Positions 6,499 through 63,958 of a stretch of 64,000 nt of DNA are shown piece after piece (within the stretch, counting starts at the first letter, position 1; each line of letters opens with the position of its first letter). The position numbers and the translations under genes are program-made. Below the pieces are notes generated by a model. The model was not told the DNA's origin. It ran no database searches and saw nothing but the letters and a program-made list of their open reading frames with translations. The DNA is taken from IMG/VR virus record IMGVR_UViG_3300020577_007233, positions 189,593 through 253,592 of that record; one strand, written 5' to 3'. This stretch comes from a virus. Its lineage: Duplodnaviria; Heunggongvirae; Uroviricota; Caudoviricetes.

Positions 6499-6622
6499 AT
6501 CCTTTTCACTCCCACTCACGTTGGTTTTTATATGTGAGGATGGTATAAAACAATAATACCATAGATTACTCTATGGTACTATCGGATTTACCAATCTCCT
6601 CTATGTACTCAGCAAAATCGAA

Positions 6623-9720: not shown

Positions 9721-11076
9721 TTACAGCATATCTTCGCTGTCTTCGATGAAATCTTCTAGAGATGGAGAAGGAGCTTCTTGCCCAAAACCAAGGGGTTTTT
9801 TCTTACTTTGAGTTTCCATATACGATGAATAATCTTTGTCTTTCACTTCTTTAATTGCTTCTGTAAAGTGAGACTTTTTAAGAAGGAGTTTTCCTTCTCT
9901 GTTAGAGTCTTCTTTTACAGCAAACAAAGCAGACGTTGTACAAAGATCTCGAATATGAGCGCCAGTTAGTCCCTTAAGGGACGTAGACAATTTCTTCAGA
10001 TCCACGCTTTCGTCAATAACAAATCTGTTTGTGAATCTGAGAATCATCTTCTCAATTTCTTTTTCTGCTGGCTTGTTTACTTTGATGATTCTATCAAACC
10101 TACCCGGACGATTCTTGACTGCGACTTCGAGATCTTTCAAGCAGTTTGTCGTTCCAAGGGTTATGATATCGCCAAAACTCTCGATACCATCAAGTTGATT
10201 CATAAGTTCCATAACAAAGGATGCGTTTCCGCTTGAGCGGTCAAGAGCAATCCAATCAATGTCTTCAATTATCAGAAGACAAGGCGCTAGGTCTTTTGCC
10301 ATTGAACAAACCTGCTTGATGCCTGTTATTCTGGTAAAATCAGAAGGAAGAGCGTACAAAACTGAACAGTCAAGGTCTTTTGCCAAGCACTTGCAAAGAT
10401 TCGTTTTGCCGACTCCTGGCTCTCCGTGAAGAATCACGCCCCTCTTGATGGAAAGGCCGTATGCTCTAAGTTTATCCCTGAGACTAAAGCTATCATTTAT
10501 GTTTGCTTTTACAACATCAATAACAGCTTTTGGCAGAATGACATCTTCCCAAGTAACATTGTCAAGCTCTAAAAACCTACAGTCGCAATCAATCTTCTTC
10601 CCTTTGTAAAGGTTATTCTCTGAAGCATACTTAAGAAGGTCTTGAAAAAGATTACCCTCTTTCTCTGTTGTTTGTATGCTGTAGTAAAACCCTCCTCTAG
10701 GGCCTTGGGTTATGGTGATGACCATTTTATTTTGGTCATTCACATAATAAAGAGTTGCAGACTTGTACCCCTTGATATATTTCTTGGGTTCAACTTCAAT
10801 ATCCATGAGGGTAGGAGGAACTTCGTTTAGATAACCATAGTCTGTGGCTTTTTGAAGCTTCCAGCCTCGGTCATTGAAGAAACGCTCCCAAACATATTGG
10901 AGCTTTCTGTGGGTATAGTGATCTGCCGCCTCAGAATCGCTTAGAGTTCTTTCAGCTTTGCTGAAAAACTCATCTAGGTGAAATTCTCTGAGCGAATCTG
11001 AATCAGCGGACATCAACGCTTGCGCGTAGTCGTGCAAGGTTGCGTCTTTGAGCTTTATTTTTTGGAGATCTGCCAT
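9721..11076 (-). CDS. Classical AAA+ ATPase with N-terminal domain
   Basis: Walker A GEPGVGKTN and Walker B LLIIEDID. A second region of homology (TNCLKDLEVAVKNRPGRFDR) is typical of FtsH/Cdc48-type AAA proteins. Confidence 0.8.
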   Translation of the reverse strand: MADLQKIKLKDATLHDYAQALMSADSDSLREFHLDEFFSKAERTLSDSEAADHYTHRKLQYVWERFFNDRGWKLQKATDYGYLNEVPPTLMDIEVEPKKYIKGYKSATLYYVNDQNKMVITITQGPRGGFYYSIQTTEKEGNLFQDLLKYASENNLYKGKKIDCDCRFLELDNVTWEDVILPKAVIDVVKANINDSFSLRDKLRAYGLSIKRGVILHGEPGVGKTNLCKCLAKDLDCSVLYALPSDFTRITGIKQVCSMAKDLAPCLLIIEDIDWIALDRSSGNASFVMELMNQLDGIESFGDIITLGTTNCLKDLEVAVKNRPGRFDRIIKVNKPAEKEIEKMILRFTNRFVIDESVDLKKLSTSLKGLTGAHIRDLCTTSALFAVKEDSNREGKLLLKKSHFTEAIKEVKDKDYSSYMETQSKKKPLGFGQEAPSPSLEDFIEDSEDML

Positions 11077-37000: not shown

Positions 37001-37270
37001 AGCGTGATTCTGTAGAACAGCTAGTTGCCTTTGTCCTTGCGGAGCCTGATTATCAGCGGGCGCAACTGCGGGAGCAGCGGGGACAGCCGCTTGATTTGCG
37101 GGAGCAGCGGGAGCAACAGGAGCAGCCGGTTGAACCTCATTAACAGGAGGTTGAACTGGTTGTTCAGGATTGCCGTCTCCCAAAGGATCGCCATTATTCA
37201 GAGGATCTGGATTTCCTCCGTTTTGAGACAATCTAACTAGCCTATCAATTTTGAAGTAGCTTGATAACAT
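34100..37270 (-). CDS. SNF2-family helicase with large N-terminal extension
   Basis: Motif I GDKTGTGKTLSTIAAA, motif II VVFDEAHMLKN and motif VI QAEGRAFRIN. The N-terminal region of about 500 aa includes a Pro/Ala/Gln-rich low-complexity tract. Confidence 0.85.
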   Translation of the reverse strand: MLSSYFKIDRLVRLSQNGGNPDPLNNGDPLGDGNPEQPVQPPVNEVQPAAPVAPAAPANQAAVPAAPAVAPADNQAPQGQRQLAVLQNHAWGKTGRITAIVRLEGLTEVEFKKLQGIAKKFVDGLKDGNGKYPEWATWKNTKNRNKIEPAPFFVFSKAQIDGPYFHVMISDKGAFDAMNAALKGIGFNTAPLEEVAMQVAAGGEDQAGQQPLADEKTVEVKVPTWDAIAIRFNYNQEIMNYIRQERIGGQEVSIRPIASYVFSRQKGTVPSQLHALASFMRKREYNVQDFIDAIDKYDQQLTEKNIAKLDPNKILVVEDASVRTKFFMFVRSPQTPGSREELGDFIKFSFPSKGNLTDLRPEKYDDIRGGFIPQQPQLPMGGNQDNPANPQEQPKPERHKPTGMRLEQNNGWFIWGSFDDFVRFSLLLKKSQWDVNSIRILLARLLNDKKLERTRYTGELDGYAVIEDGVQKRKNGELEWDYNRFFNETDAAVPGAKLFKKQKQGVAWLYQRNSAILGDKTGTGKTLSTIAAAKMRVAQSGGRILIFTLKNTQTQWMREIVQKLGEDPAQVSTNPASNAKWVIMSYSDISSNVKKGPEGAIRRPSGAPTVARATSQAYLDALYTGQWTVVVFDEAHMLKNETTSIAKNLSDLAPKIPFKWAASATPAANTAADIHNVLRITGHTLGELSTRDFTNEFIGSKATMKNMNVKEAIEAQEKGAYNLRKWLTLSGAYLSRSQKSMNPDIPQHTIGEEYIDEADFDMDGFAVELQNKLNAYKNPNAAICNLTASRLVLAKRKVPKTLADATALIDQGEKVLIFSCFKDTCRDLVRGLQEHLAGIDPDLKVVHVMDGDKGANIQAAVDEFKREDTMARAMVVAALKGGTGISMENSTQHVLMNDFDWTPRVCEQAEGRAFRINNFMPVNTRYMVVRAEGVDANGNKKLNPDEVFYRFVRNKIRIAGIVQDLDAKAEETLLAGMDDTEVQQQLKEARAEDRANQAQLAADLNEILRQAGKDAAFQDNLNPDLWEEERELNEGGENDPNQPRQAFGTWYRRIIG

Positions 37271-37296
37271 TCATCTTTCCCTTGTTATTCAGTTAT

Positions 37297-40047: not shown

Positions 40048-40271
40048 ATCTCTCCAAACGTTAGAAGATACTCACATATTCCCTGAAAATCGTCCCTATC
40101 CTTCTCTTTCTTGCTCATGATATTAGAATCGACAAACTTTCGCACAAAAGAAAACCGCCGACTCAGCCAAAGACCAAATCGGCGGGAAGTTTATCTCTAT
40201 TCTCGCTTCTCCCAACACTCTACTTTGGTGTAAAAACATCTCTGTTTCTACAAGACTATAACATAGTCTCT

Positions 40272-44740: not shown

Positions 44741-47115
44741 TTGGCTTTCTTTCCTTTTGCCTTAATGTACCAACCCTTCCTTGTCTTTTTCTTTTTCGCA
44801 GATGCATCAACCTCTCGACCCTTCTTTTTCTTGTCTTCACTAGGAGCAAGAACATGAAGCTGTTTCATGGCTCTTGTAAATGCAACATACTTGGCATTCT
44901 CTTCTTGATCCAAAGCATCTGGTGTTTTGGACTTAGGGTGAGGGAAAAGATTTGGCTCAAGAATGTAAACTCGATCAAACTCCAAACCCTTAGATCTGTG
45001 AGCGGATGTCAAAGTTACATATGACAATGGATCTTTGTTACGCAACTTCTCAGCTTCGCCCGCATCGTCAATGTTGACGCCAGCAAACTTGCTCTTGATG
45101 AAATTGATGAACGTTTCGCTATCAGTAACCCTCATATTCAGACCACGATCAGTAAAGCCGTTAGCCTCCAAGTGACCAACGATATTACCCAAAGCCTCCG
45201 TAACCGCCTTCATATCCTTAAGCTCAGCTTCTTTGCTGATCTTGTTGCGCCATTTTGCCTCAGTCTCTGTATAGAAAGAGTCCAAAACCTGTCCAAGCTG
45301 CTGAATAGGAACCCTTCTAGAGTTTCTGCCGCTTCCTACAACCTTCTTAAGATGGTCAATAAGCTCTTTTGAGAAGTCTCTTCCAATGATAACGAAATCA
45401 ACATTCGACTTCATCAATGACAATGCTGTGTTTACCAATGGAGCATTTGTTCGCGCAAGGAATGCAGTCTGAGCCGACAACCTTCCAGTTCGAGCTTTTT
45501 CATTAGCAATGCCCCCTAAAGCGTCCTCGGCTTTAGTGCCTTCCGTTACTTGGCCGTCAAAGTCCCTACCAGCAACCAAGTTCTTAACCTTAGTCTTCTG
45601 ATTGACATACTGAATAATGTTGCGACCGCTACGGTAGTTGACAGGAAGCTCATGGGGGACATTTCCGTTTGGAGCATTACCCAAAACGCCCTGAACCTTA
45701 TTGAAAGCCTGAGCATCAGCGCCTCTAAACATATAGATAGCCTGATTAGGGTCGCCTACTGCAACAATTCTTGCGCCAGCCTCAGATAGCTTTTGCAACA
45801 TAATTGTTTGACAAGTATTGAAGTCCTGAACTTCATCAGCCAAGACTACATCATACTTTGGGAACTTGACATCAGGGCTTATTGCAGAATACCACAAAGT
45901 ATCATCATGGTCTCTCATTCCCTCGCACTGAGGAACATTGCAATTTCCGGGCAAACAATAATACAGAAGATCTAGAACCTTGTCTATAATCTGAGGCTTG
46001 AACGTTTGAGCATTATTCGCCGGTTTTGAGTTGTTTGTTGTAAGGTCCGTATCAATGCTGTACTTTGTAATGATTGAGTCAATGTCTGTTGCGGCAGTTT
46101 GAGACTTAGGATGAACGGCAAAAGCCTTTGCAAGGCTTGCAACTTGCTTGATTGTTTGCTTTGCTGCGTACTTGACCGAGTTAGGAAACGTATTGTCTCC
46201 GTCCATCATAGCGTCTGCCATGATAGCTATTCTTTCCCCACCCTGATTCCATAAGTCTGTAAACTGAACCGCACCCAACTCTGCGCTTCGACCTAATACT
46301 TGTCCCAAAAAGCTGTGACTCGTCTTAACTTCAACGCCATTAGGAAACTTACCCTTACCCGTAGAGGCCTCGACTTGATTCTTCTTGTTGAAGACCAAGT
46401 AAAGCCATTTCTGATTTGGGTCTTTGAAAGATGCTAAGTGACGAAGCATCGTTGTCTTACCTGAACCAGCAAGAGCGTTAATCATTATGCTTTGAGGAGT
46501 ATTGAGGAATGATTCTTCTATTTCTTTTTGTTGCGGGCTTATTCTTTCAGCAGGAATTCGTCCCTGTACCTTATTGGGATCTTCCGCAACCGCCTCTTCC
46601 GCCTTCGCCCCTTCGTCGCCCCCAACTTGATTGTTAAGCTCACGGAATTTTTTGAAGAGCATAGACGGGACTTCGCCAGAAATTTTTTGGCCCCTATCAT
46701 CCGCGACACTTTTTACGACCTTCGCTATTTCCGCGGCTGGGATCTCCGCTCCCGTTCCGTCTTCCTTCATGTACTCCCAATAGTTGCCCTTTTTCGATAC
46801 AACCACCGGAATGCCCCCATCTAACATTGTAGCCAAAAACCAAGTTTTTCGCGCAATAGGTTGAACAACAGCATTGGGAGGCTGATTTTGCGGCTGCTGA
46901 ACTTGAGGCTGATTAGGACGAGGCATAGGAGCCTTCGGAACCTGATTCTTAGGAGCGTCAACAAGATTTACAAGACCCTTGCAACCAGGATAGTTGCTGC
47001 AACCATAGAACTCCCCATACGGACCCTTACGCAACTTCATGGTTGCTCCGCACTTCGGGCAATATACCTCTGCGGTTACAGTCTTCGAATGCTTTGTCAT
47101 CTTGTACCAACTCAT
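44737..47115 (-). CDS. UvrD/PcrA-like SF1 helicase with N-terminal topoisomerase-type C4 zinc ribbon
   Basis: The N-terminus has CPKCGATMKLRKGPYGEFYGCSNYPGCKG. Helicase motifs follow: NALAGSGKTTML (I), VLADEVQDF (II), YRSGRNII (IV) and TSAHRSKGLEFDRVYIL (VI). Confidence 0.85.
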   Translation of the reverse strand: MSWYKMTKHSKTVTAEVYCPKCGATMKLRKGPYGEFYGCSNYPGCKGLVNLVDAPKNQVPKAPMPRPNQPQVQQPQNQPPNAVVQPIARKTWFLATMLDGGIPVVVSKKGNYWEYMKEDGTGAEIPAAEIAKVVKSVADDRGQKISGEVPSMLFKKFRELNNQVGGDEGAKAEEAVAEDPNKVQGRIPAERISPQQKEIEESFLNTPQSIMINALAGSGKTTMLRHLASFKDPNQKWLYLVFNKKNQVEASTGKGKFPNGVEVKTSHSFLGQVLGRSAELGAVQFTDLWNQGGERIAIMADAMMDGDNTFPNSVKYAAKQTIKQVASLAKAFAVHPKSQTAATDIDSIITKYSIDTDLTTNNSKPANNAQTFKPQIIDKVLDLLYYCLPGNCNVPQCEGMRDHDDTLWYSAISPDVKFPKYDVVLADEVQDFNTCQTIMLQKLSEAGARIVAVGDPNQAIYMFRGADAQAFNKVQGVLGNAPNGNVPHELPVNYRSGRNIIQYVNQKTKVKNLVAGRDFDGQVTEGTKAEDALGGIANEKARTGRLSAQTAFLARTNAPLVNTALSLMKSNVDFVIIGRDFSKELIDHLKKVVGSGRNSRRVPIQQLGQVLDSFYTETEAKWRNKISKEAELKDMKAVTEALGNIVGHLEANGFTDRGLNMRVTDSETFINFIKSKFAGVNIDDAGEAEKLRNKDPLSYVTLTSAHRSKGLEFDRVYILEPNLFPHPKSKTPDALDQEENAKYVAFTRAMKQLHVLAPSEDKKKKGREVDASAKKKKTRKGWYIKAKGKKAK

Positions 47116-53358: not shown

Positions 53359-54219
53359 CTAACTAAAAATGTCATACACATCTTTAGAAGATTCTGTATC
53401 AAATCTTTCTTTCCAATGAAGCATCGTATGACAGTTATGACAGAGAACGTCACATTTATTAATTTCTTGTTGTATAGATTTTATGCTTTTGCCTTTTGCC
53501 ACTAATCTTCCTATTTCACTTGTTTTCTCTTTGGGATCTCGATGGTGAAAACATAAAACAGCCGGATGACTTTCTCCGCAGTCTTTACAAGGATGGTTAA
53601 GTTTGTATTCCCAAATATATTCCATTGCTTTATATTTTCTTCGAGTTAGGTTTTTTCGAATATCTAGTTTTTTGTTTTTGCATACTTGTTCTATTGTAGG
53701 AACTGAACTTTTTAACTTATTTTGCCTCTTTTTGAAATAATAGTGCTGAGCATTAGTGTACTTGTATTGCGTCTTCAAAAATGTTTGTTTCTCAAGTTCT
53801 TTGATTTCCGATAAGAGTCTTTCTTTTTCTTTTAGCCGACTCTCATGTTGTTCTAGAAAAATAGATTCTTGTTTATCTCTAAGATTTTCTATTTCTTTTC
53901 TTATTATTTCTTGCTCTAATTTCCGTTTTGCTTCGTTTTGTAGATTGATTTTCTGATTTTCTAATTCTACTAACTCACTTTGTTCTTTTTGAGCCTTTTC
54001 AAGATTCTTTAATAGAAGATCATATCGTTGCTGATTTTCTTCGCTCATCCCTTCGAGGGATATCTTTTTGATTTCTCTTCTAATAGAACCAAGATATTGT
54101 TCTAAGCGATATCTTTCTTTATTCTGAGACCGCCATTTTTTCTTGTATTCTCTTTGTTTTTGTTTATCTTTGTATGGCATATAGCTAGTTATCGTGTGTT
54201 TTACTATTCTACGTTTCAA
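53359..54219 (-). CDS. HNH endonuclease with K/E-rich coiled-coil N-terminus
   Basis: C-terminal CKDCGESHPAVLCFHHRDPKEK...CDVLCHNCH. A TTG start is inferred. It sits at the composition boundary. Confidence 0.7.
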   Translation of the reverse strand: MKRRIVKHTITSYMPYKDKQKQREYKKKWRSQNKERYRLEQYLGSIRREIKKISLEGMSEENQQRYDLLLKNLEKAQKEQSELVELENQKINLQNEAKRKLEQEIIRKEIENLRDKQESIFLEQHESRLKEKERLLSEIKELEKQTFLKTQYKYTNAQHYYFKKRQNKLKSSVPTIEQVCKNKKLDIRKNLTRRKYKAMEYIWEYKLNHPCKDCGESHPAVLCFHHRDPKEKTSEIGRLVAKGKSIKSIQQEINKCDVLCHNCHTMLHWKERFDTESSKDVYDIFS

Positions 54220-54395: not shown

Positions 54396-54578
54396 CTAAG
54401 AAAGTCTAGCCCTTCTTAAGCTGCTCCTCAGTTCCTTAAGCTTTGCCTTGAACTTGGCATGGATGGATGGGTCATCCTTGCAGCCTGCGTATCCGCCAGC
54501 GGCAACGTCTCTGCGCCATTGCGAGTAGTCGTCCTCTGTCTTATCAATCTGCTGTTGGATGGTCATGGGCTTGTTCAT
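54396..54578 (-). CDS. Small hypothetical protein (60 aa)
   Basis: Minus ORF directly downstream of motif copy 54597. Confidence 0.45.
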   Translation of the reverse strand: MNKPMTIQQQIDKTEDDYSQWRRDVAAGGYAGCKDDPSIHAKFKAKLKELRSSLRRARLS

Positions 54579-54685
54579 ACCTACAACCTTTGCGCAGAAA
54601 GTCTAGCCTCCTTAACTTGGTACGGAACCCATACCCTTGCGGGCTAGGTTAGGTTGGCTCAACCCTTTACCCGTACCGTGCGCCG

Positions 54686-54892
54686 TTAGCCCTTCTTGGG
54701 CTTTGTTACCTTGAGGCTGATGCGTCCCTTGTTGTTGGAGGCGAAGGCGAGGACTCGGTTGAGCATATGGTTGGCCTTCTTCCAACCGGCGACTCGGACA
54801 ACATCATCGACTTCGAGGGAAACGTCGATGTTAAGACGAGTCTGCTTGCTTGAGCGGGACTTGGTTGCCTTGACTGTTTTGGTTGCTGCCAT
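54686..54892 (-). CDS. Small basic protein (68 aa), possible DNA-binding
   Basis: Downstream of motif 54911, after an AAGGA RBS. Confidence 0.45.
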   Translation of the reverse strand: MAATKTVKATKSRSSKQTRLNIDVSLEVDDVVRVAGWKKANHMLNRVLAFASNNKGRISLKVTKPKKG

Positions 54893-54916
54893 GTTCCTTG
54901 TTTCCTTTGAGGAAGT

Positions 54917-55405
54917 CTAGCCCTCAACCCAATACGCTCGGCTGCTTTCGGTGACGTAGTTATTTTCCGTCATCTGCCAAGCCTTTCCATTGTGACGAAT
55001 GGAGTTTGTAAAGTATTTCGGCTTGTTGTTTTCGTCGAGGATGGCGATGCTGTAATCGCCAGCGGTCTTGGGAGGGTCAGTAAAGACGCAACGAAGTTTT
55101 GCCTTGAAACTGACAGGCTTGTAGGCTTTCTTCTTTCTCGGCTTGTCCAGCCGAACGAGGTCGGTAAAGACTTTGCCGTAGGGAAGGGGAGGATGGCCCT
55201 CCTTGTCGGTCGGAGCCTTGACTGAGGCGACAACCGCATACTCCTTAATATGACGATTGTAGGCTTCCCATTGCTTTGCGATTTCGGTTGCTTCGGCAAT
55301 GGTTTTTGGTTCTGGACCGCTGGGGCCAAAGTTGCCCTGCCAAGTTCCATCAACTTTGTTGCCGTTCGTTTTTTCGACTTCGATGATGGAGTAGTTCATG
55401 TTCAT
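54917..55405 (-). CDS. Hypothetical protein (162 aa)
   Basis: Downstream of motif 55418. Its TAG stop is the CTAG core of motif 54911. Confidence 0.5.
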   Translation of the reverse strand: MNMNYSIIEVEKTNGNKVDGTWQGNFGPSGPEPKTIAEATEIAKQWEAYNRHIKEYAVVASVKAPTDKEGHPPLPYGKVFTDLVRLDKPRKKKAYKPVSFKAKLRCVFTDPPKTAGDYSIAILDENNKPKYFTNSIRHNGKAWQMTENNYVTESSRAYWVEG

Positions 55406-55428
55406 TACGAAGGGTCAGGAAGTCTAGC

Positions 55429-55557
55429 CTACCGCTGAGAGTTCTTGGGCTGCCGCTGCTTGTTGCGTTCTCTCCGCCGTTCGTTCCTCCGCTGTTTGCG
55501 CTCTTGTTCGGCTGCCCAGCGTTGGATGGCGTTCGCATCTCTTTCAAAGTCGCTCAT
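55429..55557 (-). CDS. Small Arg/Gln-rich protein (42 aa)
   Basis: Hand translation gives MSDFERDANAIQRWAAEQERKQRRNERRRERNKQRQPKNSQR. It lies downstream of motif 55576. The 65-aa ORF listed in the track is in another frame and crosses a motif, so it was rejected. Confidence 0.35.
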   Translation of the reverse strand: MSDFERDANAIQRWAAEQERKQRRNERRRERNKQRQPKNSQR

Positions 55558-55637
55558 GCTTATGAGTTGTTGTTAGAAAGTCTAGCCTTGTTAAATGACA
55601 AACCCCCTTACGGGGGTTGTTTGGGGTTGGGGTTGAC

Positions 55638-56006
55638 TTAGGCGACCGCTGCCGCTTTGGGCTTGGGCGGGAGGCTGATGCGCCCGCCGCGACGGATGAC
55701 GTAGGGGATGGGGCTGTCGTTGGGGACGGTGATGCCGTAGATGCTGCTGAGCATCCCAGTCGCCTGCTTGTCGCCGCCGAGGTCGCGGATGGTCTTGGCG
55801 GCGATTCGGATGGTCTGGCGAGTGCCGCTGGCGATGGTTGCGCGGCCCTTGGTCATGATCGTTCCGATGAGGCTCTTGACTTCGGCATCGGAGAGGTTGG
55901 GGTTGGCGGCGCGGACGGCGTTGATAGCGAAATCGACGCTGTGGATGCTGCTATTGAGGATGGTGAGGGTGAAGGGCTTGGCGGTCTTCTTGGTCTTGGT
56001 CGTCAT
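55638..56006 (-). CDS. Hypothetical protein (122 aa)
   Basis: RBS AAAAGGAAAC. Downstream of motif 56071. Confidence 0.5.
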   Translation of the reverse strand: MTTKTKKTAKPFTLTILNSSIHSVDFAINAVRAANPNLSDAEVKSLIGTIMTKGRATIASGTRQTIRIAAKTIRDLGGDKQATGMLSSIYGITVPNDSPIPYVIRRGGRISLPPKPKAAAVA

Positions 56007-56087
56007 TGGGCGTTTCCTTTTCTTTGTTAGGGGCGAGGCATTCGTCCCTTATGGCTCTTGGAAGTTGCGAGAAAGTCTAGCCTTGAA

Positions 56088-56381
56088 TTACCCCTGCCTC
56101 AAACTGAGTTGAGGGATAACAATGCGGCTGGCGATGGCGGCTGTTTCCTTGACGATGTGCCGAGTTCCCTTAAGTTCGGCTGTCTTGGAGTTGCCTTCGA
56201 GTTGGCGGTTCTGCTTGGCGATTCTGCGCCCGAGGGTTTGGGGCGTAACTTCGTTGACCTTGAAGAAACGGCGAGCGTTGCCTTGCCGTTCTGCTTCTTC
56301 ATCGAGGGAATCGAGGCCGCTACCCTTTTGGGCTGCGGCTCGTTGACGGTTGAGGTTGCGGAGGGCTTTTTCGTTGAACAT
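56088..56381 (-). CDS. Hypothetical protein (97 aa)
   Basis: RBS AAAGGA. Downstream of motif 56416. Confidence 0.5.
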   Translation of the reverse strand: MFNEKALRNLNRQRAAAQKGSGLDSLDEEAERQGNARRFFKVNEVTPQTLGRRIAKQNRQLEGNSKTAELKGTRHIVKETAAIASRIVIPQLSLRQG

Positions 56382-56461
56382 TGGGCTGGTCCTTTCTGCT
56401 GCCTATTTCTGGCGAGAAAGTCTAGCCTTGCCTTTCGGCAACGATGAAAGCCTTGCCTTTG

Positions 56462-56950
56462 TTAGCCCTTTGCCTTGCCGACCTTGACCACCTTGAGGAG
56501 AAAGCGAGCGCGACGGCCTGCGTGCTGTCCAGGCTTGCGGTTGAAAACGATGTCGGCCCTTGCCTTGCTCATGCCAGCATCGCGCCGCTTCTTGCGGTTG
56601 ATGACGGTTTGCTTCTTGATGGGGGTGATGCTGATGGGGTGGCCGAGGTCGAACACCGTACCGGCGGCTTCGGGCTGTCCTGCGTCAAACTGCTTGGCGG
56701 ACACAAACTGCTGAGCGTTGGGCGAGAAAACGAGGCGGTGGCCGTTGGCGATGGCTCGGATTTCGAGGCGGTCATTCTGAAAGACGACGGGATCTCCGTA
56801 GCCAGCGAGGCGCATGCCTTCGGCGTGTTGGCAATGCCGAGGGTCTTGGAGTTTGCACTCCTTCGCATCGGGCAGCGAGTAGAGGCGAGGCATCTTCTTG
56901 TTGCCCACCTTGAAATACTTGTGCTTGGGATTGGGCTTGGTCGTGGTCAC
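56462..56950 (-). CDS. Basic hypothetical protein (162 aa)
   Basis: GTG start with an AGGA RBS. Downstream of motif 57003. Confidence 0.45.
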   Translation of the reverse strand: MTTTKPNPKHKYFKVGNKKMPRLYSLPDAKECKLQDPRHCQHAEGMRLAGYGDPVVFQNDRLEIRAIANGHRLVFSPNAQQFVSAKQFDAGQPEAAGTVFDLGHPISITPIKKQTVINRKKRRDAGMSKARADIVFNRKPGQHAGRRARFLLKVVKVGKAKG

Positions 56951-57008
56951 TTCTTCTGTCCTTTCATGGAATGGGGTTGACGATGGGGCTTGTTATTTGC
57001 GCGAAAGT

Positions 57009-57431
57009 CTAGCCGATTGCCTGTGCCTTGCGTGCTTCGTATTCCTCTTTGGCCTTCACCCACTTGTCGAGGGTTTCGATTGCTGCCTCTGGCACGCCTT
57101 CGCGGAAGTTGTCTGACCAAAGGCGGCAATACGCTCCGTCGCTGTATTCGCTGAGGCCAATCCATTGAACGTGGTTGTTCTCATCGAGGAACATGCAACC
57201 ACCAAAGCGGCTGAATGTGCTTGCCTTGGGCTTGTTCCAAACTTCGCCTGCCACCTTGGGGTTGGTTGTCTGGCTCCAGAATCGCACGCCCTTGTTGGGG
57301 CTGTATTCGAGCCAGTACCGAATCTTGCAGCGAAGTCGGAACCCAAAGGGGTAATCATCGACGACGTATGCGGTTTCGGGTGAGATGTGTCCCTTGAGGA
57401 GTTTCGTGACGGTTGGGAGGGTATTGGGCAT
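57009..57431 (-). CDS. Hypothetical protein (140 aa)
   Basis: Downstream of motif 57449. Its stop TAG lies inside motif 57003. Confidence 0.5.
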   Translation of the reverse strand: MPNTLPTVTKLLKGHISPETAYVVDDYPFGFRLRCKIRYWLEYSPNKGVRFWSQTTNPKVAGEVWNKPKASTFSRFGGCMFLDENNHVQWIGLSEYSDGAYCRLWSDNFREGVPEAAIETLDKWVKAKEEYEARKAQAIG

Positions 57432-57454
57432 GGTTCTTGTTTCTTGCGCGAAAG

Positions 57455-57586
57455 TCTAACCCTGCCTTGCGCCTCTGCGATTGAGGAGTTCGGTTGTGAT
57501 GGCGAGCATGGCCTCAACGTCGCCTTCCATCTTGGCGAGTTCGTAGGCATCGCGGAGGTGATTGAACGTCATTTGGTCGAGTCGCA
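57455..57586 (-). CDS. Small protein (43 aa)
   Basis: Hand translation gives MRLDQMTFNHLRDAYELAKMEGDVEAMLAITTELLNRRGARQG. The stop TAG lies inside motif 57449. Downstream of motif 57627. Confidence 0.35.
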
Positions 57587-57844
57587 TGGGTCGAGTCCTT
57601 TCGTTGTTACATATAATAAGTTGCCAGAAAGTCTAGTCGTTGGCGGCTCGGAGAGTTCCACTCATAACGATTACCGCTAGTTAAGCTCAACAAGGCCCTC
57701 AAAGGGCCTTGTGAGCTGCCGTTGGATGATTCGCTTGTTTGGTTGGGGTTAGTTCTGTTTCATGGTTTGTTCTCCCTTGGTTTGTCGGAGTTGACTTGTC
57801 TGATGACTCTTAACAAGGGGCTGAAAGTCTAGCCCCCTTGTCTC

Positions 57845-58195
57845 TTACCATCCGAGTTCCTTCGGGCGGTTGGTATTCTCTACCCTCTTGCGTTGGGGCT
57901 GAGGGTTGCGATTCTGAGCGGCGGCAACCGCTGCGCCGAGGAATCCTTCGATATTGGCGACGCGCTGGCCGAGTTCTTCGGCATCCTTCTTCTTCTTCCG
58001 TTCGTCCATGATAGCGTTCATGGCGAGGGAGCGAAGTCCTTGCGCTTCCGCCCGTTCCAACAAAACTCGTTCGAGTTCTGTCAGTTCGTCGTAGGCGAGG
58101 AATTGTTGGGGGGCTGGCTTGTCCAGACCGCCGTATTGTTCGGCGGCAAGGATGAGCATGGGGTCCATTCGACGGAGTTGGTTGGGGTTGGGCAT
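57845..58195 (-). CDS. Hypothetical protein (116 aa)
   Basis: Downstream of motif 58214. Confidence 0.5.
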   Translation of the reverse strand: MPNPNQLRRMDPMLILAAEQYGGLDKPAPQQFLAYDELTELERVLLERAEAQGLRSLAMNAIMDERKKKKDAEELGQRVANIEGFLGAAVAAAQNRNPQPQRKRVENTNRPKELGW

Positions 58196-58232
58196 GACTC
58201 TTATTTCCTTTGGGAAAGTCTAGCCCTTCGAT

Positions 58233-58526
58233 TTAACGACCTGCTTTGGCTTGGATGCGGACGTTGTAGAAGTTGCCCTCTCGTTGGTCGCTCTGTACGT
58301 TCCCAAAATGAACGATCCAATTCCTCTCGTCAAACTCCTTGACAGTCCTTCTGATGACTCTCTCATTGACAAGGGAAGTGGCAATGGTTGTATCTACCGT
58401 GCTGCCAGTAACGTATTGGCGAGTGAGAGTCTGAATGAGGGAATCGACCACCTTGACGAACATGGCTTCGTCTTGGTCTTGCTGAATCTTGTCGAGTTTG
58501 CTTGGCGTTGGGATGTTGATGTTCAT
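58233..58526 (-). CDS. Hypothetical protein (97 aa)
   Basis: Translationally coupled to the upstream gene. Confidence 0.45.
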   Translation of the reverse strand: MNINIPTPSKLDKIQQDQDEAMFVKVVDSLIQTLTRQYVTGSTVDTTIATSLVNERVIRRTVKEFDERNWIVHFGNVQSDQREGNFYNVRIQAKAGR

Positions 58527-58714
58527 TAGATTCTCCCTGTTGCAGTAAACTCCACCTTGAGGCCGTTAGAAAGGGTCACGATGCCCTCAAGGGCTGCTGC
58601 GAACGATGAGGGATGAAGGTTGCGAGAGTTGTTGCACTTGCTGCATGGTCCTCCCTTGAGGCCGCTGTGCTTGCCGCAGTCTTTCTTAACAAGTTTGATG
58701 GGCGGTTGTTCCAT
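58526..58714 (-). CDS. Small Cys-containing protein (62 aa)
   Basis: CGKHSGLKGGPCSKCN. Downstream of motif 58733. Confidence 0.45.
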   Translation of the reverse strand: MEQPPIKLVKKDCGKHSGLKGGPCSKCNNSRNLHPSSFAAALEGIVTLSNGLKVEFTATGRI

Positions 58715-58771
58715 GCGTTCTACTTCTTGCGCGAAAGTCTAACCCTTGCGCAGTGGTGGCGCAGTGTTGCA

Positions 58772-59020
58772 TTACTGATTTGCTTCGAGTTGCGCCTTGT
58801 ACCGCTGAAAGTTGTGACGTTGTGTTGCTTGGGCTGCTCGGTACTCAACTTGACAACTGATGCAGCGAATCTCTGCGCTGCTTGTTCGTTCGAGTTTCTC
58901 AAAGGGCTGATGGCAGTCGTAACAAATGCCGACGATTCTTCTTGCGATGCAAGTATCGCAAGCAACAACGGTGGGGATTTCTTCCCCTTTGCAGAATCCG
59001 CATTTGTCGTTGCTGGGCAT
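58772..59020 (-). CDS. Cys-rich zinc-ribbon-like protein (82 aa)
   Basis: CGFC...CDTC...CYDCH...CISC. Downstream of motif 59039. Confidence 0.5.
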   Translation of the reverse strand: MPSNDKCGFCKGEEIPTVVACDTCIARRIVGICYDCHQPFEKLERTSSAEIRCISCQVEYRAAQATQRHNFQRYKAQLEANQ

Positions 59021-59044
59021 GACTCTATCTTCCGTTCTGGAAGT

Positions 59045-59356
59045 CTAGCCCTTGATGCGAATACTTCCCTTCATGCGTTCATCATCGCACCAACAACCGC
59101 AGACTCCTCCGCAACCTGGGCAACCACCCTTGATTGTGACATCGGCTTCGAGAGCGTAGGCTGCATTGCCGATGATTCGAGCGGTCTGATTCCAAATGGC
59201 TTGACTGGTGCCGTCAAGTTCCTTTGCTGACTTGTCCGAAACCATTTGGCAGGCTTTGGCAGTCGCCTTAAGCATGCGCTCGCCGTATTGCTCGATGAAA
59301 ACGAACATTGACAGAGCGAGTTCATCGTCGGAAAGTTGTTTGGGAGGGTTGGGCAT
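59045..59356 (-). CDS. Cys-rich protein (103 aa)
   Basis: GGCPGCGGVCGCWC. Its stop TAG lies inside motif 59039. Downstream of motif 59375. Confidence 0.5.
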   Translation of the reverse strand: MPNPPKQLSDDELALSMFVFIEQYGERMLKATAKACQMVSDKSAKELDGTSQAIWNQTARIIGNAAYALEADVTIKGGCPGCGGVCGCWCDDERMKGSIRIKG

Positions 59357-59390
59357 GGCTTTTACTTCCTGCGAGAAAGTCTAGCCCTTA

Positions 59391-59669
59391 TTAGTTGGGC
59401 ATCTTATGTCTTGCCGCTGCTGCGAGTTCAGGCGAGACAACGAATCCCATGCCAAGCCAGTTACGGTCGGCGAGAGAGGTGAACGCTTCCATCTTGGCCG
59501 CCTCAATTGGCCGCTTCTTCATTCGCTCAAAAGCGATCCAAATGCGCTTGATGGTTCGAGGAGTCGGTCGTTTGGGATGATGAAGCAGAGCGTAAACGTG
59601 GACGATGCTTGGCAGGTGCATCATGCGACGGATGCTCATGTTATTCGGATTGGGGCAGTCCGTTGTCAT
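59391..59669 (-). CDS. Hypothetical protein (92 aa)
   Basis: Downstream of motif 59687. Confidence 0.45.
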   Translation of the reverse strand: MTTDCPNPNNMSIRRMMHLPSIVHVYALLHHPKRPTPRTIKRIWIAFERMKKRPIEAAKMEAFTSLADRNWLGMGFVVSPELAAAARHKMPN

Positions 59670-59881
59670 TGCTTTTGTTTATTGAGCGAAAGTCTAGTCT
59701 TTGGGGCATTGGGCTGGAAGGACGTTCACTCATAATGATTACGATGTTTAAGTAGCCAGAGCGGCTTAGGGGCATTGAGTTCCCTATCCGCTGCTCCCTG
59801 CAATGCTCCCCTCGGAACGTGTCCGAGAGGCAGGTCGCCTGGCTTTTCCCATTGTAAGGCTTTGACCCGAAAGTCTAGCCC

Positions 59882-60070
59882 TTAGATTCTGTTTCCCTTG
59901 CTGTCGCAAGGTCCGAGCGTAACCCAATGAGCGTCGTAGGGTTGGGGCTTGACAAGGGGTGGCCCCTTCCAAGTTCCGTTCCTCCGTTGCTCCATCTCAT
60001 GCGCCCATGAGCCTTCGTAGCGGCTGATGGGTTCGTACTTGCCGTTCGGTTTCTTCTTTCCAAGTCCCAT
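59882..60070 (-). CDS. Small protein (62 aa; start moved to ATG at 60070)
   Basis: Starting at MGLGKKKPNGKY places the ATG 18 nt from motif 60089. The track's TTG start would be only 6 nt from the motif. Confidence 0.4.
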   Translation of the reverse strand: MGLGKKKPNGKYEPISRYEGSWAHEMEQRRNGTWKGPPLVKPQPYDAHWVTLGPCDSKGNRI

Positions 60071-60099
60071 GCTTCTTAACAAGGGTTGGAAAGTCTAGC

Positions 60100-60513
60100 C
60101 TACAGTTTGCTGACTCTTTCGCCGTCCCCAACGAGGTCGTACTCGGGAAATTCCTTGCTGAGTTTGGTAAGGCGTTCGCCGAGTTCGTTGGCTTCGAGTT
60201 CCCTTCTGTCCCAAAAGCCAGCCCCATGACCGTTGCGAGTGAGCCAAAAGTCGTGGCCGTACTGAGCGGCATCCGCTTCTTCGAGTTCCTCGGTGGTAAG
60301 TTCTTCGAGCATCATGGTTGCAAACTGAGCGCAGTCGGCAACCATATCAAAGTAAGTCGCCGGCTCGATATCATCGCCGTCGTACTGACCGTCCAAGTTC
60401 TCTGAGGTGGCTTGATCGCCTTCGTTGGTACTTGACCAAAGGGCGCAAACGATGTACGCCTTCACAAAGTTGTCAAACCAATTCGAGGGGTTGGAGTTGA
60501 AGTTCTTACTCAC
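60100..60513 (-). CDS. Acidic hypothetical protein (about 137 aa)
   Basis: Start inferred at a GTG that overlaps the upstream small gene's TGA (GTGA coupling). The 249-aa track ORF crosses motif 60708 and is treated as an artefactual extension. Confidence 0.4.
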   Translation of the reverse strand: MSKNFNSNPSNWFDNFVKAYIVCALWSSTNEGDQATSENLDGQYDGDDIEPATYFDMVADCAQFATMMLEELTTEELEEADAAQYGHDFWLTRNGHGAGFWDRRELEANELGERLTKLSKEFPEYDLVGDGERVSKL

Positions 60514-60689
60514 GCCTTCTCCCCTTCTGGCACGCCCGCCGCTTCGAGGAGTTCGGTATCGCTTGCGTCGATGTGCTTTGCGAGGGATTGGAGTTCCGAA
60601 AGTTCTCCGTAAGAGATACGTTCGGCTCGGAGTTCCTTGCGAAGATACTCCAATCTGTCTCGGATGCTTTGAGGGGTTGAGTTGGGCAT
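60510..60689 (-). CDS. Small protein (59 aa)
   Basis: Hand translation gives MPNSTPQSIRDRLEYLRKELRAERISYGELSELQSLAKHIDASDTELLEAAGVPEGEKA. The ATG is 18 nt downstream of motif 60708 with an AAAGG RBS. Confidence 0.4.
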   Translation of the reverse strand: MPNSTPQSIRDRLEYLRKELRAERISYGELSELQSLAKHIDASDTELLEAAGVPEGEKA

Positions 60690-60713
60690 GACCTTTATTT
60701 CTGGCGCGAAAGT

Positions 60714-61046
60714 CTAGCCGACGATGCTGGTGTATGCGTCTGGCTTGGTTTCGCCCTTCTTGCGCAAAAACCAACCTCTCGTTGAGATGTGGATGATTTC
60801 GTAACCCTCGGCAATCTGAGGGAAGGGGCGGTACTCGCCTTGCCACCATTCGTCATTACGAACGCATCCGCCGTTGTAACGGGTTGACCCATAGGCTGAG
60901 GGAATGGACGCTGATGACCCCATGTAACCCTTGCCGTAACCATCCCCAAAGGCGTTCTTAGGATTGGCTTTGGCAACCTTGGCGCATTTCGCTGCATCCC
61001 AAACCTCTTGCGGATGCTGAAACAATGGAAGGTTGGGGTTGACCAT
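60714..61046 (-). CDS. Gly/Tyr-rich hypothetical protein (110 aa)
   Basis: Downstream of motif 61065. Its stop TAG lies inside motif 60708. Confidence 0.45.
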   Translation of the reverse strand: MVNPNLPLFQHPQEVWDAAKCAKVAKANPKNAFGDGYGKGYMGSSASIPSAYGSTRYNGGCVRNDEWWQGEYRPFPQIAEGYEIIHISTRGWFLRKKGETKPDAYTSIVG

Positions 61047-61146
61047 GCTTAAGGATTTGCTGATGAAAGTCTAGCCGATTGCGTTGCACTCATAACGATT
61101 ATGGTCGCTTGTTATTTCCTTGCACTCATAACGATTTCGGTTAGTT

Positions 61147-61186
61147 AAAAGCCAAACGGCAAGGGATTCGTCCCTTACCGTTGGCT
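61147..61186 (-). terminator. Intrinsic terminator (hairpin plus T-run) preceding a promoter-like cassette
   Basis: On the minus strand the stem AAGCCAACGGTAAGGGA/TCCCTTGCCGTTTGGCTT is followed by TTTTAAC. Confidence 0.55.
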
Positions 61187-61223
61187 TGCCCAATGTTCGT
61201 TTGGAAAGTCTAGCCCTCGGCTT

Positions 61224-61949
61224 TCAGACCTTCATCATGCTGCGCTCGCCGATGAGGTACGCTTCGGCAATGTCCCAAATTCGCTCCCTCATTTCCATCG
61301 GACGCTCGGTAAAGTTGTCGGTAATCCGATACCGTTCGCCGCCGATGGCGATTTCGACGATGTTCTCAATACCGTAGACAACGAACCGAACCGCATCATC
61401 CCCAAGCCCCTGATTGGAGTAGTCGGAGCGAGGGGCAAGGTACGGCTCGACGTTTTCGGTCGGCTCGGTCGTTCCGTCCGCGAGTCGGAGATACTCGGGC
61501 GTTCCAACCGCCTTGAAGATGAAGCGGAGATAGGCCGCGCCGTCGTCGCCCTTGTCCTTCTTGTTGACGCTGAGGCAAGTCGGACCATCCTCGGCCATGA
61601 TAGGCCGATGCCATGATTCGCCCTTGCGGAAGCGGTCTTGAATTTCCGCCTCAAGTTCCTCGGCTGAGAGGGGGGCAAGGTTCGCCGCCGCCCGTTCCGC
61701 CTCAATCGCCTTTGCGAGTCGGTTCTCGACAACGCGCTCGTAACGGCCCGCGATGGTTCCGTTGACCTTTGTGACCTTGCCGATGGTCAAACCATCCTTC
61801 ATGGTACGGCCCGCCTTGAAGGGGTTGGGAAGGCCGTTGGTTCCGTTCGCCCTCGTATCGGGTTCGGTAACAACCACCATGCTGATGATGGTATTGGCGG
61901 TAACGCCAAGCAGAAGGGTTCGGAGTTGGTTGCGAGAGATGAGTTTCAT
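61224..61949 (-). CDS. Secreted hypothetical protein (241 aa, N-terminal signal peptide)
   Basis: Hydrophobic N-terminus. Downstream of motif 61987. Confidence 0.5.
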   Translation of the reverse strand: MKLISRNQLRTLLLGVTANTIISMVVVTEPDTRANGTNGLPNPFKAGRTMKDGLTIGKVTKVNGTIAGRYERVVENRLAKAIEAERAAANLAPLSAEELEAEIQDRFRKGESWHRPIMAEDGPTCLSVNKKDKGDDGAAYLRFIFKAVGTPEYLRLADGTTEPTENVEPYLAPRSDYSNQGLGDDAVRFVVYGIENIVEIAIGGERYRITDNFTERPMEMRERIWDIAEAYLIGERSMMKV

Positions 61950-62128
61950 TGGGCAGAGTTCCTTTCTGTCTACTGAAAGTTCCTTGAAAGTCTAGCCCCA
62001 AAGTTCATTGGTTGGGGTTGCTTTCGATGCTACTGGAAATTCCGTTGAAAGTCTAACCCTTGCGCCGAATCAGGAAGTTCACTCATAACGATTATGCTGC
62101 AATCATTATAGGTGAGATTGTTCGATGC

Positions 62129-62155
62129 AAAAACGAAAGCCGCAGTTGGCTTTCG
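62129..62155 (-). terminator. Strong intrinsic terminator immediately after motif copy 62156
   Basis: On the minus strand the stem CGAAAGCC-AACTGC-GGCTTTCG is followed by TTTTTGC. Confidence 0.65.
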
Positions 62156-62171
62156 GAAGTCTAGCCCTGTT

Positions 62172-62489
62172 TCAGCCAGCCGCAATGGTCGCTTCAAGGG
62201 GGACGTTTGGTGCGCCTGCTTCAATGGCGACGTTATCCCTCTTGGTCTGAATCTGCTCAACCTTGAGTTCGCAGAGTTCAAGATGCCCTCTCCAAACAAC
62301 CGCCTTACCTTTTTCGTGGACCTCGATGGTTGTTTTGACTGCATCCTTTTCGCTCATCTTGCAAACCTCCATGAGAAGGTTAGCAACGAAGTCGGGCGTA
62401 TGAACGTCGGAGTTCCAAAGGAGAACAACATGGGGAGGAAGATGGTCAACCTTGGTTTCGGTTGCTTGTTCAAGGGTTGCGTTGGGCAT
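62172..62489 (-). CDS. clpS: ClpS-like ATP-dependent Clp protease adaptor
   Basis: VVLLWNSDVHTPDFVANLLMEVCKMSEKDAVKTTIEVHEKGKAVVWRGHLELCELKVEQI is collinear with E. coli ClpS ([23 protein letters not shown]...[22 protein letters not shown]). Confidence 0.7.
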   Translation of the reverse strand: MPNATLEQATETKVDHLPPHVVLLWNSDVHTPDFVANLLMEVCKMSEKDAVKTTIEVHEKGKAVVWRGHLELCELKVEQIQTKRDNVAIEAGAPNVPLEATIAAG

Positions 62490-62559
62490 CTGATTCTTTT
62501 CGACATCGCCTATTTCGGCTCTGAAAGTCTAGCCGCCGTTTTTTTCCACATCGAAGTTC

Positions 62560-62950
62560 AGCGGTCTTGACTCCGCCTCGTCTTTTGGGGTCTTGCACAG
62601 TGCAAACAGTGTGAGTTCAGTGCCTCTTGTGTGCCTTTTGTGTGCAGTTCAGTGGTCCTTGCTGCGCCTGCCTCCGCCTCGGCTGCCTCGGAGCGGCTCC
62701 TCTTCTTTTGGGGTCTTTATGATCTTTCAAGATCGCCCTTGTTTTTGGGCCTTTTTGCACCTCGGAGGTGATCGTCTTTGGGGGTCTTGACGGTCAAATG
62801 ACCGCTTTGACCGCCATCTGATCCATGCTCTTTTGGGTCGTTGGACAAATCTATTTGTATCGGCTTCTGTTTGGGGGTCTTTGGTCTGGGTGCTGCTTCC
62901 CCGATCTTTCCGGGTTTGCCGGGTCTTTGACCCAGATCTGGGTCTCGTTT
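62560..62950. repeat. Non-coding iteron/palindrome region: about five copies of TTTGGGGTCTT plus two perfect palindromes (GATCTTTCAAGATC and GACCCAGATCTGGGTC); GATC-rich
   Basis: Iteron copies lie at about 62581, 62705, 62774, 62829 and 62867. The palindromes are at 62721-62734 and 62929-62944. At least six GATC sites fall within about 260 bp. No credible ORF is present. Confidence 0.6.
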
Positions 62951-63178
62951 ACCCTGCGACGGAAAAGGTCACTCATAACGATTATATGCTAGCGCAAACA
63001 TAAGGGCGGCTTGTTTAGGGCCGCCCGTTGATTCGTACCTCCCGATTCTCTTTCGGGTTCCGAATAGCAGAGTTCCGTCCGCTCGGGGTAACTAAGGCTC
63101 GCAACCATACACTGACCAGTCGCCCGGTCTATCCTGTTGCTTTTACCATTCCATGCCTTTTGTTTTCGGCGCGAAAGT

Positions 63179-63364
63179 CTAGCCGACTTTCAGAGTCAGA
63201 GGATGCTTGAATGAGGGGCGAGAAACAATCCGATTGGGCTTCTCGGCGTTCTGAACCTCAAGGGTTCCTCGGAGCCAAATGGGAACCTTTGAGTGAACGG
63301 TGGGGTTCTTGGGCCGCTGTGCGGCTTCTGCTGCTCTCTTGGCTTCTTTGCTTGCTCGGCTCAT
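63179..63364 (-). CDS. Small basic protein (61 aa)
   Basis: RBS AAAGGAAAAG. Its stop TAG lies inside motif 63173. Confidence 0.45.
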   Translation of the reverse strand: MSRASKEAKRAAEAAQRPKNPTVHSKVPIWLRGTLEVQNAEKPNRIVSRPSFKHPLTLKVG

Positions 63365-63520
63365 GGGCTTTTCCTTTTCAACAAAGGGCGAGAAAGGCGA
63401 GGACGCAGAGAACGAAACGGTCTCGGTTGCTCATGCTTATGACTTCTTACTTAGAAGTCTAGTCTCCTTAAAGCAGAGCGGAGGACCAACGGCCCTCTAC
63501 GCCCTGCTGCCCAAGTTTCA

Positions 63521-63709
63521 TTACCACTTCTTCGTGGCTGTCTGCTGAACGGTTGCCTTGTTGCCGTTGCTTCCGAACGCCTGCCTTGCTGCGTCGGCTG
63601 CGTTGTTCGCCCCAGTCACGGTCTTGGTTTGACCGCTGTGAGTGACTTGGAACGAGTTATGGGAACCTTGCTGCATTGGCTGGAACGGGGTGTTATTCGA
63701 GTTTGTCAT
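63521..63709 (-). CDS. Small protein (62 aa)
   Basis: Downstream of the double motif at 63728 and 63744. Confidence 0.45.
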   Translation of the reverse strand: MTNSNNTPFQPMQQGSHNSFQVTHSGQTKTVTGANNAADAARQAFGSNGNKATVQQTATKKW

Positions 63710-63748
63710 GCCTATTGAAATGACCCCGAAAGTCTATCCCCAAAAAGT

Positions 63749-63958
63749 CTAGCCCTGACTCTTGGTTGGCGTCAGAAGAAAAGGCTCGTTTGCTTCTTCA
63801 GGACGGTTGGGCCAAGAGCGAAGCCGCTTCATCTCAGGGTCGGCGTGCTTCAGATCCCAAACGCTCTTGGGGTCGATGGTGCCAGGGTAGGGCCAGTCGT
63901 TGGGACTGACGCCCCGCCACATTACCGCTGCCTTGCTGAAGCCTTGGCAGTAACCCAC
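63749..63958 (-). CDS. Small protein (69 aa as listed; N-terminus uncertain)
   Basis: Its stop TAG lies inside motif 63744. Confidence 0.4.
   Translation of the reverse strand: MGYCQGFSKAAVMWRGVSPNDWPYPGTIDPKSVWDLKHADPEMKRLRSWPNRPEEANEPFLLTPTKSQG

Follow-up and report, generated by a model that had tools for sequence, protein, structure and literature searches.

Phages that carry their own ClpS, the adaptor that presents N-degrons to a Clp unfoldase, have been described before. Several jumbo phages encode such a protein, which likely brings targets to the ClpAP of the host (Iyer et al. 2021, PMC7824862), and gp708 of Agrobacterium phage Atu_ph07 has been annotated as ClpS (PMC6102473). Furthermore, Gp53 of phage SPO1, a protein from the host-takeover module, binds ClpC and behaves as an adaptor-like modulator (PMC6873191). 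Here we analyse a stretch of 64,000 nucleotides (nt) from the IMG/VR virus record IMGVR_UViG_3300020577_007233 (positions 189,593 to 253,592), which we call the window and whose positions are used throughout. Its minus strand encodes a ClpS-family protein of 105 residues, hereafter class A (62172..62489, ATG start, the end coordinate taking in the stop codon). On balance, we think it probable that class A is a working ClpS-type adaptor of an uncultured, probably huge phage with a host that is probably a planctomycete. As phage ClpS proteins have already been annotated, the finding is less novel than a preliminary description of this DNA had implied. The lineage, which is of planctomycete type, is a new one, and the new details are a degenerate paralog that accompanies class A and the substitution of an otherwise invariant Asp.

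Class A is a real ClpS homolog with a ClpS fold. The preliminary description had stated that the 105-residue protein aligns collinearly with bacterial ClpS, and it had suggested profile searches, a structure prediction and an inspection of the pocket residues as ways to check this. The collinearity was confirmed by BLASTP, which aligned E. coli ClpS with class A over 86 columns at 30% identity. In Pfam, PF02617 matched with 69.3 bits (gathering score 23, E value 2.4e-19) over profile positions 4-69 of 80. The other profile collections recovered the same family: ten ClpS models of NCBIfam matched with E values from 2.6e-11 to 6e-5, and the PHROG 27368 profile, labelled 'ATP-dependent protease', matched with an E value of 6.8e-9. 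In addition, ClpS chains of the PDB from M. smegmatis, C. crescentus, E. coli, A. tumefaciens and Arabidopsis matched class A by sequence, with E values down to 1.2e-5. The ATG at 62489 is the earliest in-frame start codon past the upstream stop.

The structure prediction agreed with the profile searches. The AlphaFold2 model, based on an alignment of 89 sequences, had a mean predicted local distance difference test score (pLDDT) of 83, with about 90 or above in the core. It contains strands at residues 20-25, 62-68 and 100-104, helices at 32-42, 47-60 and 70-82 and a short helix at 86-90, which gives the core the order beta-alpha-alpha-beta-alpha-(short alpha)-beta. When this model was compared with the PDB by Foldseek, all 38 matches at an E value of 0.001 or better were ClpS, with template-modelling scores, normalised by target, of up to 0.90. 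The two outcomes that the preliminary description had named as refuting, profile searches that miss the family and a model without its fold, thus did not occur. Residues 1 to about 19, which precede the first strand (residue 20), had low pLDDT (47 in the first block, 59 in the second, and below 50 in segments 1-3 and 8-13), and according to the model they form a disordered, flexible N-terminal extension such as the ClpS family has. In E. coli ClpS this extension comprises residues 1-25 (PMC12493166); that of class A, with 17-19 residues, is therefore 6-8 residues shorter.

Regarding the residues that bind the N-degron, we took their roles from secondary sources, namely a review for the pocket (PMC8346999) and a second article for the docking on ClpA (PMC12493166). 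The core of class A aligns with that of E. coli ClpS without gaps, the E. coli number being the window number plus 8. According to the review, the amino group and the amide of the N-degron are held by the side chains of N34 and H66 and by the main-chain oxygens of D35, T38 and M40, and its side chain is surrounded by V43, V65 and a Leu printed as L109. The pocket turned out to be conserved for the most part. Class A keeps N26, D28, V35, V57, H58 and L98, which correspond to E. coli N34, D36, V43, V65, H66 and L99 respectively, and it has S27, H30, P32 and T54 in the places of D35, T38, M40 and M62. Among the kept residues, N26, H58, V35, V57 and L98 are invariant across the phage clade. Since they match the side chains to which the review assigns a role, the side-chain determinants of the N-degron pocket all appear to be present in class A.

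The docking surface is also kept. E71, E74 and K76 of class A correspond to the helix-3 triad E79/E82/K84 of E. coli ClpS. Among the 89 aligned sequences the two Glu residues do not vary, and conservation of K76 reaches 98%. In the E. coli complex, E82 and K84 form salt bridges with R86 and E23 of ClpA respectively, and E79 forms hydrogen bonds to E28 and T81 of ClpA (PMC12493166). The conserved acidic pair D35-D36 is broken in class A, where the motif reads N-S-D. The remoter phage-type homologs vary in this motif as well, with NDQ in locus L011 (a 494-kb IMG/VR contig) and DSP in locus L093. The replacement of Asp by Ser suggests that the specificity or affinity of class A differs from that of the host adaptor, either through the pocket entrance or through a docking contact.

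Four orthologs of class A could be compared at the codon level, namely those of the window and of the related loci L010, L009 and L007, which share 79-98% amino-acid identity. The ratio of nonsynonymous to synonymous substitution rates (dN/dS) was 0.05-0.32, with dS of up to 0.98, therefore the gene is under purifying selection and is selectively maintained. Close relatives are very few: a word-indexed search among 5.8 billion proteins gave only six, all of them metagenomic. When 1.84 billion representatives were searched exhaustively with HMMER, 307 matches had an E value of 0.001 or better, the best with 57% identity. Cellular ClpS proteins were reached only by the exhaustive HMMER and the profile searches, not by the word-indexed search.

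The nearest cellular proteins, obtained by profile search and by a scan of 185,579 species genomes, were at most 47% identical to class A. With four exceptions, the best 80 genome loci belonged to Planctomycetota, including Gemmataceae, Planctomycetaceae, Phycisphaeraceae, Isosphaeraceae and Pirellulales, and in these planctomycete genomes ClpS is a stand-alone gene amid housekeeping genes. One group of ClpS proteins from Planctomycetes has been reported to bind N-terminal Leu, Ile and Val natively (bioRxiv 10.1101/2022.01.04.475002). As the nearest cellular ClpS are planctomycete and such binding has been reported for this group, the host of the phage is probably a planctomycete and class A may possibly prefer aliphatic N-termini.

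The window is best read as part of an uncultured, probably huge phage. Related blocks with the ClpS gene were found in several samples; among the contigs that carry such a homologous block are two viral ones of IMG/VR (494 and 371 kb) and a metagenomic one of 128 kb. Both IMG/VR contigs show the same transition from GC-rich to GC-poor DNA beside an HNH endonuclease gene. The window itself encodes a ribonucleotide reductase, a thymidylate synthase, a sigma factor, two HNH endonucleases, a DNA methyltransferase, SNF2 and UvrD helicases, a DUF4116 protein and a protein with an ART-PolyVal domain, a domain that Pfam describes as occurring in polyvalent proteins. The first 6,600 nt are neither non-coding nor recoded, since they are occupied by one giant minus-strand open reading frame (ORF) that runs off the window start (1-6570, at least 2190 residues). 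Three stretches of this ORF match DUF3383 (PF11863, E value 3e-29); no PHROG profile matched it.

Regarding other genes, a run of very large ones was observed on the minus strand at 34100-47115, with an SNF2-type helicase (1056 residues), a 916-residue protein without assignment, the DUF4116 protein (709 residues), the ART-PolyVal protein, which has an ADP-ribosyltransferase domain (780 residues), and a fusion of a UvrD helicase with a topoisomerase-type zinc ribbon (792 residues). A DUF4116 protein also flanks the corresponding block in L093. Capsid, portal and terminase genes were not identified within the 64 kb. Among the INPHARED phages there was no match either by megablast of positions 58-64 kb or by tblastn of ClpS or of the 916-residue protein, and a scan of IMG/VR with this last protein gave no match. 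Rfam searches at gathering thresholds and scans for transfer RNAs and tandem repeats were empty.

Both ClpS-type genes of the window, class A and the paralog described below, lie in a block (54400..63754) that consists of small minus-strand genes and is rich in GC, with a GC fraction of 0.51-0.55 against 0.38-0.46 elsewhere in the window. The block is punctuated by the 12-mer GGCTAGACTTTC, of which it holds 29 copies with at most two mismatches, all in a single orientation. Outside the block only four weak two-mismatch matches occur, and about 5.5 would be expected by chance in the whole window. From the motif to the next ATG the distance is exactly 18 nt in 14 of the 28 copies with at most one mismatch, and a smaller set lies at 33-36 nt. 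Promoters of the sigma-70 type were not found in the block, against 4.0 expected, and no conserved -35 element accompanies the copies of the motif.

The class A gene has a copy of GGCTAGACTTTC at 62523..62534 on the minus strand, 33 nt before its ATG, which may serve as a promoter or as another kind of expression signal; a spacing of 33-36 nt is kept in L010, L009 and L007. We also observed an out-of-frame ATG at 62506, which has the usual spacing of 16-18 nt to the motif (16 nt in this case) and opens a frame of 50 codons (62354-62506, minus strand) overlapping the ClpS start. This frame could be an upstream ORF acting on ClpS translation, or it could be due to chance. At the other end of the gene a second copy, GGCTAGACTTCC (62155-62166, minus strand), begins 6 nt past the ClpS stop and leads into a terminator-like hairpin, CGAAAGCC-AACTGC-GGCTTTCG followed by TTTTT (62155 to 62134), the whole element covering 62134..62166.

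The same block architecture, with variants of the motif, was found in L001, L007, L009, L010, L011, L093 and L095. The variant is GACTAAACTT[CT]C in L011, ACTAAACTTT in L093 (37 copies) and GACTAGACTT in L095 (29 copies). Because the motif changes along with the phage lineage, these sequences suggest its recognition by a phage-encoded factor, and the motif may provide one promoter per gene for such a factor. A sigma factor is encoded in the window at 14782-15636. Another feature shared within the block concerns the protein starts. Between 57450 and 62489, several proteins of the block, ClpS among them, start with Met-Pro-Asn (ATGCCCAAC) or a near variant, namely MPN in five, MPS in one and MVN in one. 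This could be a feature of translation initiation or a common N-terminal signal, and it is notable beside a reader of N-termini.

At the edge of the block the GC fraction steps from about 0.38 to about 0.52, at 54.2-54.4 kb of the window and at about 13 kb of L011. An HNH endonuclease gene lies at this boundary in both (53359-54219 in the window, 13320-13754 in L011). In several samples the block was assembled as separate contigs of 4-9.5 kb. We rejected the idea that the jump near 54 kb stems from a chimeric assembly, because independent IMG/VR contigs show the same junction of GC-rich and low-GC DNA with the HNH gene.

Two other genes of this block deserve attention. The first encodes a protein of 241 residues (61224..61949, minus strand) without functional assignment, which adjoins ClpS or lies near it in related loci. 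It is linked to ClpS over divergent loci, even with the gene order flipped. Its fold was confidently predicted, without a clear structural relative, and among the matches found for it there was no link to proteolysis.

The other gene encodes a degenerate ClpS-like paralog of 122 residues, class B (55638..56006, minus strand). It was recognised by a ClpS profile built here (E value 4.2e-7 with hmmsearch; hhalign probability 91.8%), and with the Pfam ClpS model it remained below the cut-off (E value 0.052). Its orthologs occupy the same block in L011 (10753-11268), L093 (15158-15568), L095 (14921-15295) and L007 (6709-7044); those of L011 (29.1 bits), L093 and L095 exceed the Pfam cut-off of 23 bits, and that of L007 scores 21.6 bits. 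Class B keeps the pocket Asn. The position of H66 is Met in the copy of the window, and the His is kept outside it. The triad E79/E82/K84 is lost, being replaced for example by Q/R/A or D/R/L, and for this reason class B should not dock on the Clp N-domain in the known way.

The preliminary description had also pointed to an AAA+ ATPase in the window. The ORF is indeed present (9721..11076, minus strand, 451 residues), in the low-GC part and about 51 kb from ClpS. It contains a single classical AAA module and an AAA_lid_3 domain only, even at an E value of up to 1, and at this same threshold no Clp_N repeats, that is, the N-domain of ClpA and ClpC, were found. Its nearest relatives in the PDB and NCBIfam are Cdc48/p97, AFG2, PAN and FtsH. 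We therefore rejected it as a partner of ClpS, as it is of the Cdc48/PAN type and has no Clp_N domain, and there is no evident link between the two genes.

We propose that, after infection, class A would dock on the N-domain of the host ClpA or ClpC through its helix-3 triad, in competition with the host ClpS. The substrate choice of ClpAP or ClpCP would then shift, proteins with a suitable N-terminal residue being handed over and default substrates being suppressed, and the change from Asp to Ser would modify the entrance of the pocket. Several observations weigh against this proposal. At the position of D35, all 81 cellular relatives have Asp and all 7 sequences of the phage clade have Ser. 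This clade also changes Y28 to His and A81 to Cys (E. coli numbering), together with G84 to Arg and E103 to Ala (window numbering, in a C-terminal segment beyond the part aligned with E. coli ClpS). All these clade-specific changes fall where conservation within the cellular set is 97-100%. Since D35 is sited at the pocket entrance (PMC8346999), and since a simulation of M. tuberculosis ClpS, where Asp35 is called universally conserved, predicts it to make the main contact with Lys85 of ClpC1 (PMC6274998), the change could affect the pocket entrance, the docking or both, and either function may be weakened. Furthermore, class A scores below every equivalog cut-off of the NCBIfam ClpS models, its best score being 43.5 bits with a model whose cut-off is 160 (the cut-offs range from 86 to 160 among the models listed). 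By these scores, class A, although a member of the ClpS family, is not an ortholog of any curated bacterial NCBIfam subgroup. Moreover, the window holds no gene for a Clp ATPase, ClpP or Aat, and in the literature we found no experimental study and no binding or degradation data for any phage ClpS.

The changed Asp also lends itself to another explanation, in which class A would be a pure inhibitor or decoy that occupies the N-domain of the host ClpA or ClpC without delivering anything, thus blocking the host ClpS and other adaptors and protecting phage proteins. An invariant docking triad combined with the replacement of a universally conserved residue at the pocket entrance would fit a decoy, as would the short N-terminal extension, and ClpS itself inhibits the degradation of ssrA substrates by ClpAP (PMC12493166). 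Nevertheless, we consider this rather unlikely: a pure plug would not need the equivalents of N34, H66, V43, V65 and L99, which are kept and clade-invariant, and the contribution of D35 is a main-chain oxygen (PMC8346999), which Ser can also supply. Class A might also bind N-termini independently of Clp, either as a sponge for destabilising N-termini, shielding the phage or host proteins that bear them, or as the recognition module of a partner such as the 241-residue protein. The persistent linkage of that protein to ClpS is in favour of this, and class B, lying without the docking triad in the same blocks, would be an example of the ClpS fold used here without Clp docking. However, the invariance of E71/E74/K76 in class A is hard to explain without an N-domain partner, and nothing found for the 241-residue protein points to proteolysis, which leaves a Clp-independent role quite improbable. 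The idea that class A is a passenger gene without a role in infection, or that the window is cellular or plasmid DNA with an ordinary host ClpS, could appeal to the missing capsid, terminase and portal genes and to the lack of DNA or protein matches to deposited phages. It is very improbable indeed given the purifying selection, the identity of at most 47% to any cellular ClpS and the conserved place in a motif-punctuated block that is also present on the 494- and 371-kb viral contigs. Moreover, the window encodes what large phages typically carry (ribonucleotide reductase, thymidylate synthase, sigma factor, HNH, ART-PolyVal and the giant DUF3383 protein), and the ClpS genes of planctomycetes sit amid housekeeping genes instead.

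The adaptor proposal, which we prefer, could be extended to a two-part phage N-degron module, although we hold this extension to be improbable. Class A, with its remodelled entrance, would retarget the host ClpA/ClpC-ClpP to N-termini chosen by the phage and deliver them; the docking-deficient class B would protect, as a shield or anti-adaptor for N-termini to be spared; and the 241-residue protein would act as a partner or generate the degrons by processing. If true, it would be the first case of a virus encoding an N-degron pathway in which one reader serves to 'deliver' and another to 'protect'. More generally, phage ClpS proteins bear on the question of whether the bacterial N-degron pathway serves viruses in destroying the defences of the host or in protecting viral proteins. 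The lineage of class A offers a clean test case, with an intact docking surface, one universal pocket-entrance residue changed and a docking-deficient paralog close at hand within its block. It also indicates that Planctomycetota probably host a clade of uncultured, very large phages. From a practical point of view, planctomycete-type ClpS proteins are of value as recognisers of N-terminal amino acids in protein sequencing, and variants with an altered pocket may be useful.

When compared with the bacterial ClpS of E. coli and C. crescentus, the N-recognin adaptor of ClpAP/ClpCP, class A has the same N34, D36, H66, V43, V65 and L99 and the same E79/E82/K84 triad. It differs from the E. coli protein, to which it is 30% identical, in the changes of D35 to Ser, T38 to His, M40 to Pro and M62 to Thr, and it adds a short helix and a loop ahead of the last strand. 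Furthermore, its gene lies on a mobile, viral-type element with no adjacent clpA. The stand-alone ClpS of Planctomycetota, which gave the top matches in the exhaustive and genome searches, is closer. It shares with class A the motifs PP(Y/H)xV(I/L)LxN..xH(T/S)xx(F/Y)V, (V/A)HxxG(K/R)AVVW.G and ExxELKxxQI and a longer C-terminal PL..TI segment. Even so, the identity does not exceed 47%, and the phage clade alters D35, Y28 and A81 (E. coli numbering) and G84 and E103 (window numbering).

Regarding deposited phages, a search with E. coli ClpS found homologs in at least 27 records of INPHARED, the majority being jumbo phages with genomes of 285-490 kb, and most of these records annotate the homolog as a Clp adaptor or ATP-dependent protease. 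The carriers include PA5oct-like Pseudomonas phages, Atu_ph07, Sinorhizobium phage Phosso, Cronobacter phage GAP32 and others, whose ClpS proteins correspond to PHROG 27368. Class A resembles them in being the ClpS of a probably jumbo or huge phage and in matching this same PHROG. By contrast, it is of the planctomycete and not of the proteobacterial type, and it is paired with a docking-deficient paralog in a motif-punctuated block. No deposited phage ClpS matched class A by tblastn at an E value of 1e-3 or better; in a search extended to E values of up to 5, the best were of the PA5oct type, with E values of 0.1-0.2 and 28-32% identity. Class A thus forms a separate lineage within a known kind of gene. 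Experimentally, the proposed mechanism has its best precedent, by analogy, in Gp53 of SPO1. This 25-kDa protein also comes from a phage block of small genes, engages a host Clp unfoldase (B. subtilis ClpCP) in an adaptor-like way and reprograms proteolysis (PMC6873191). It is not presented as a relative of ClpS, and its likeness to class A is functional only.
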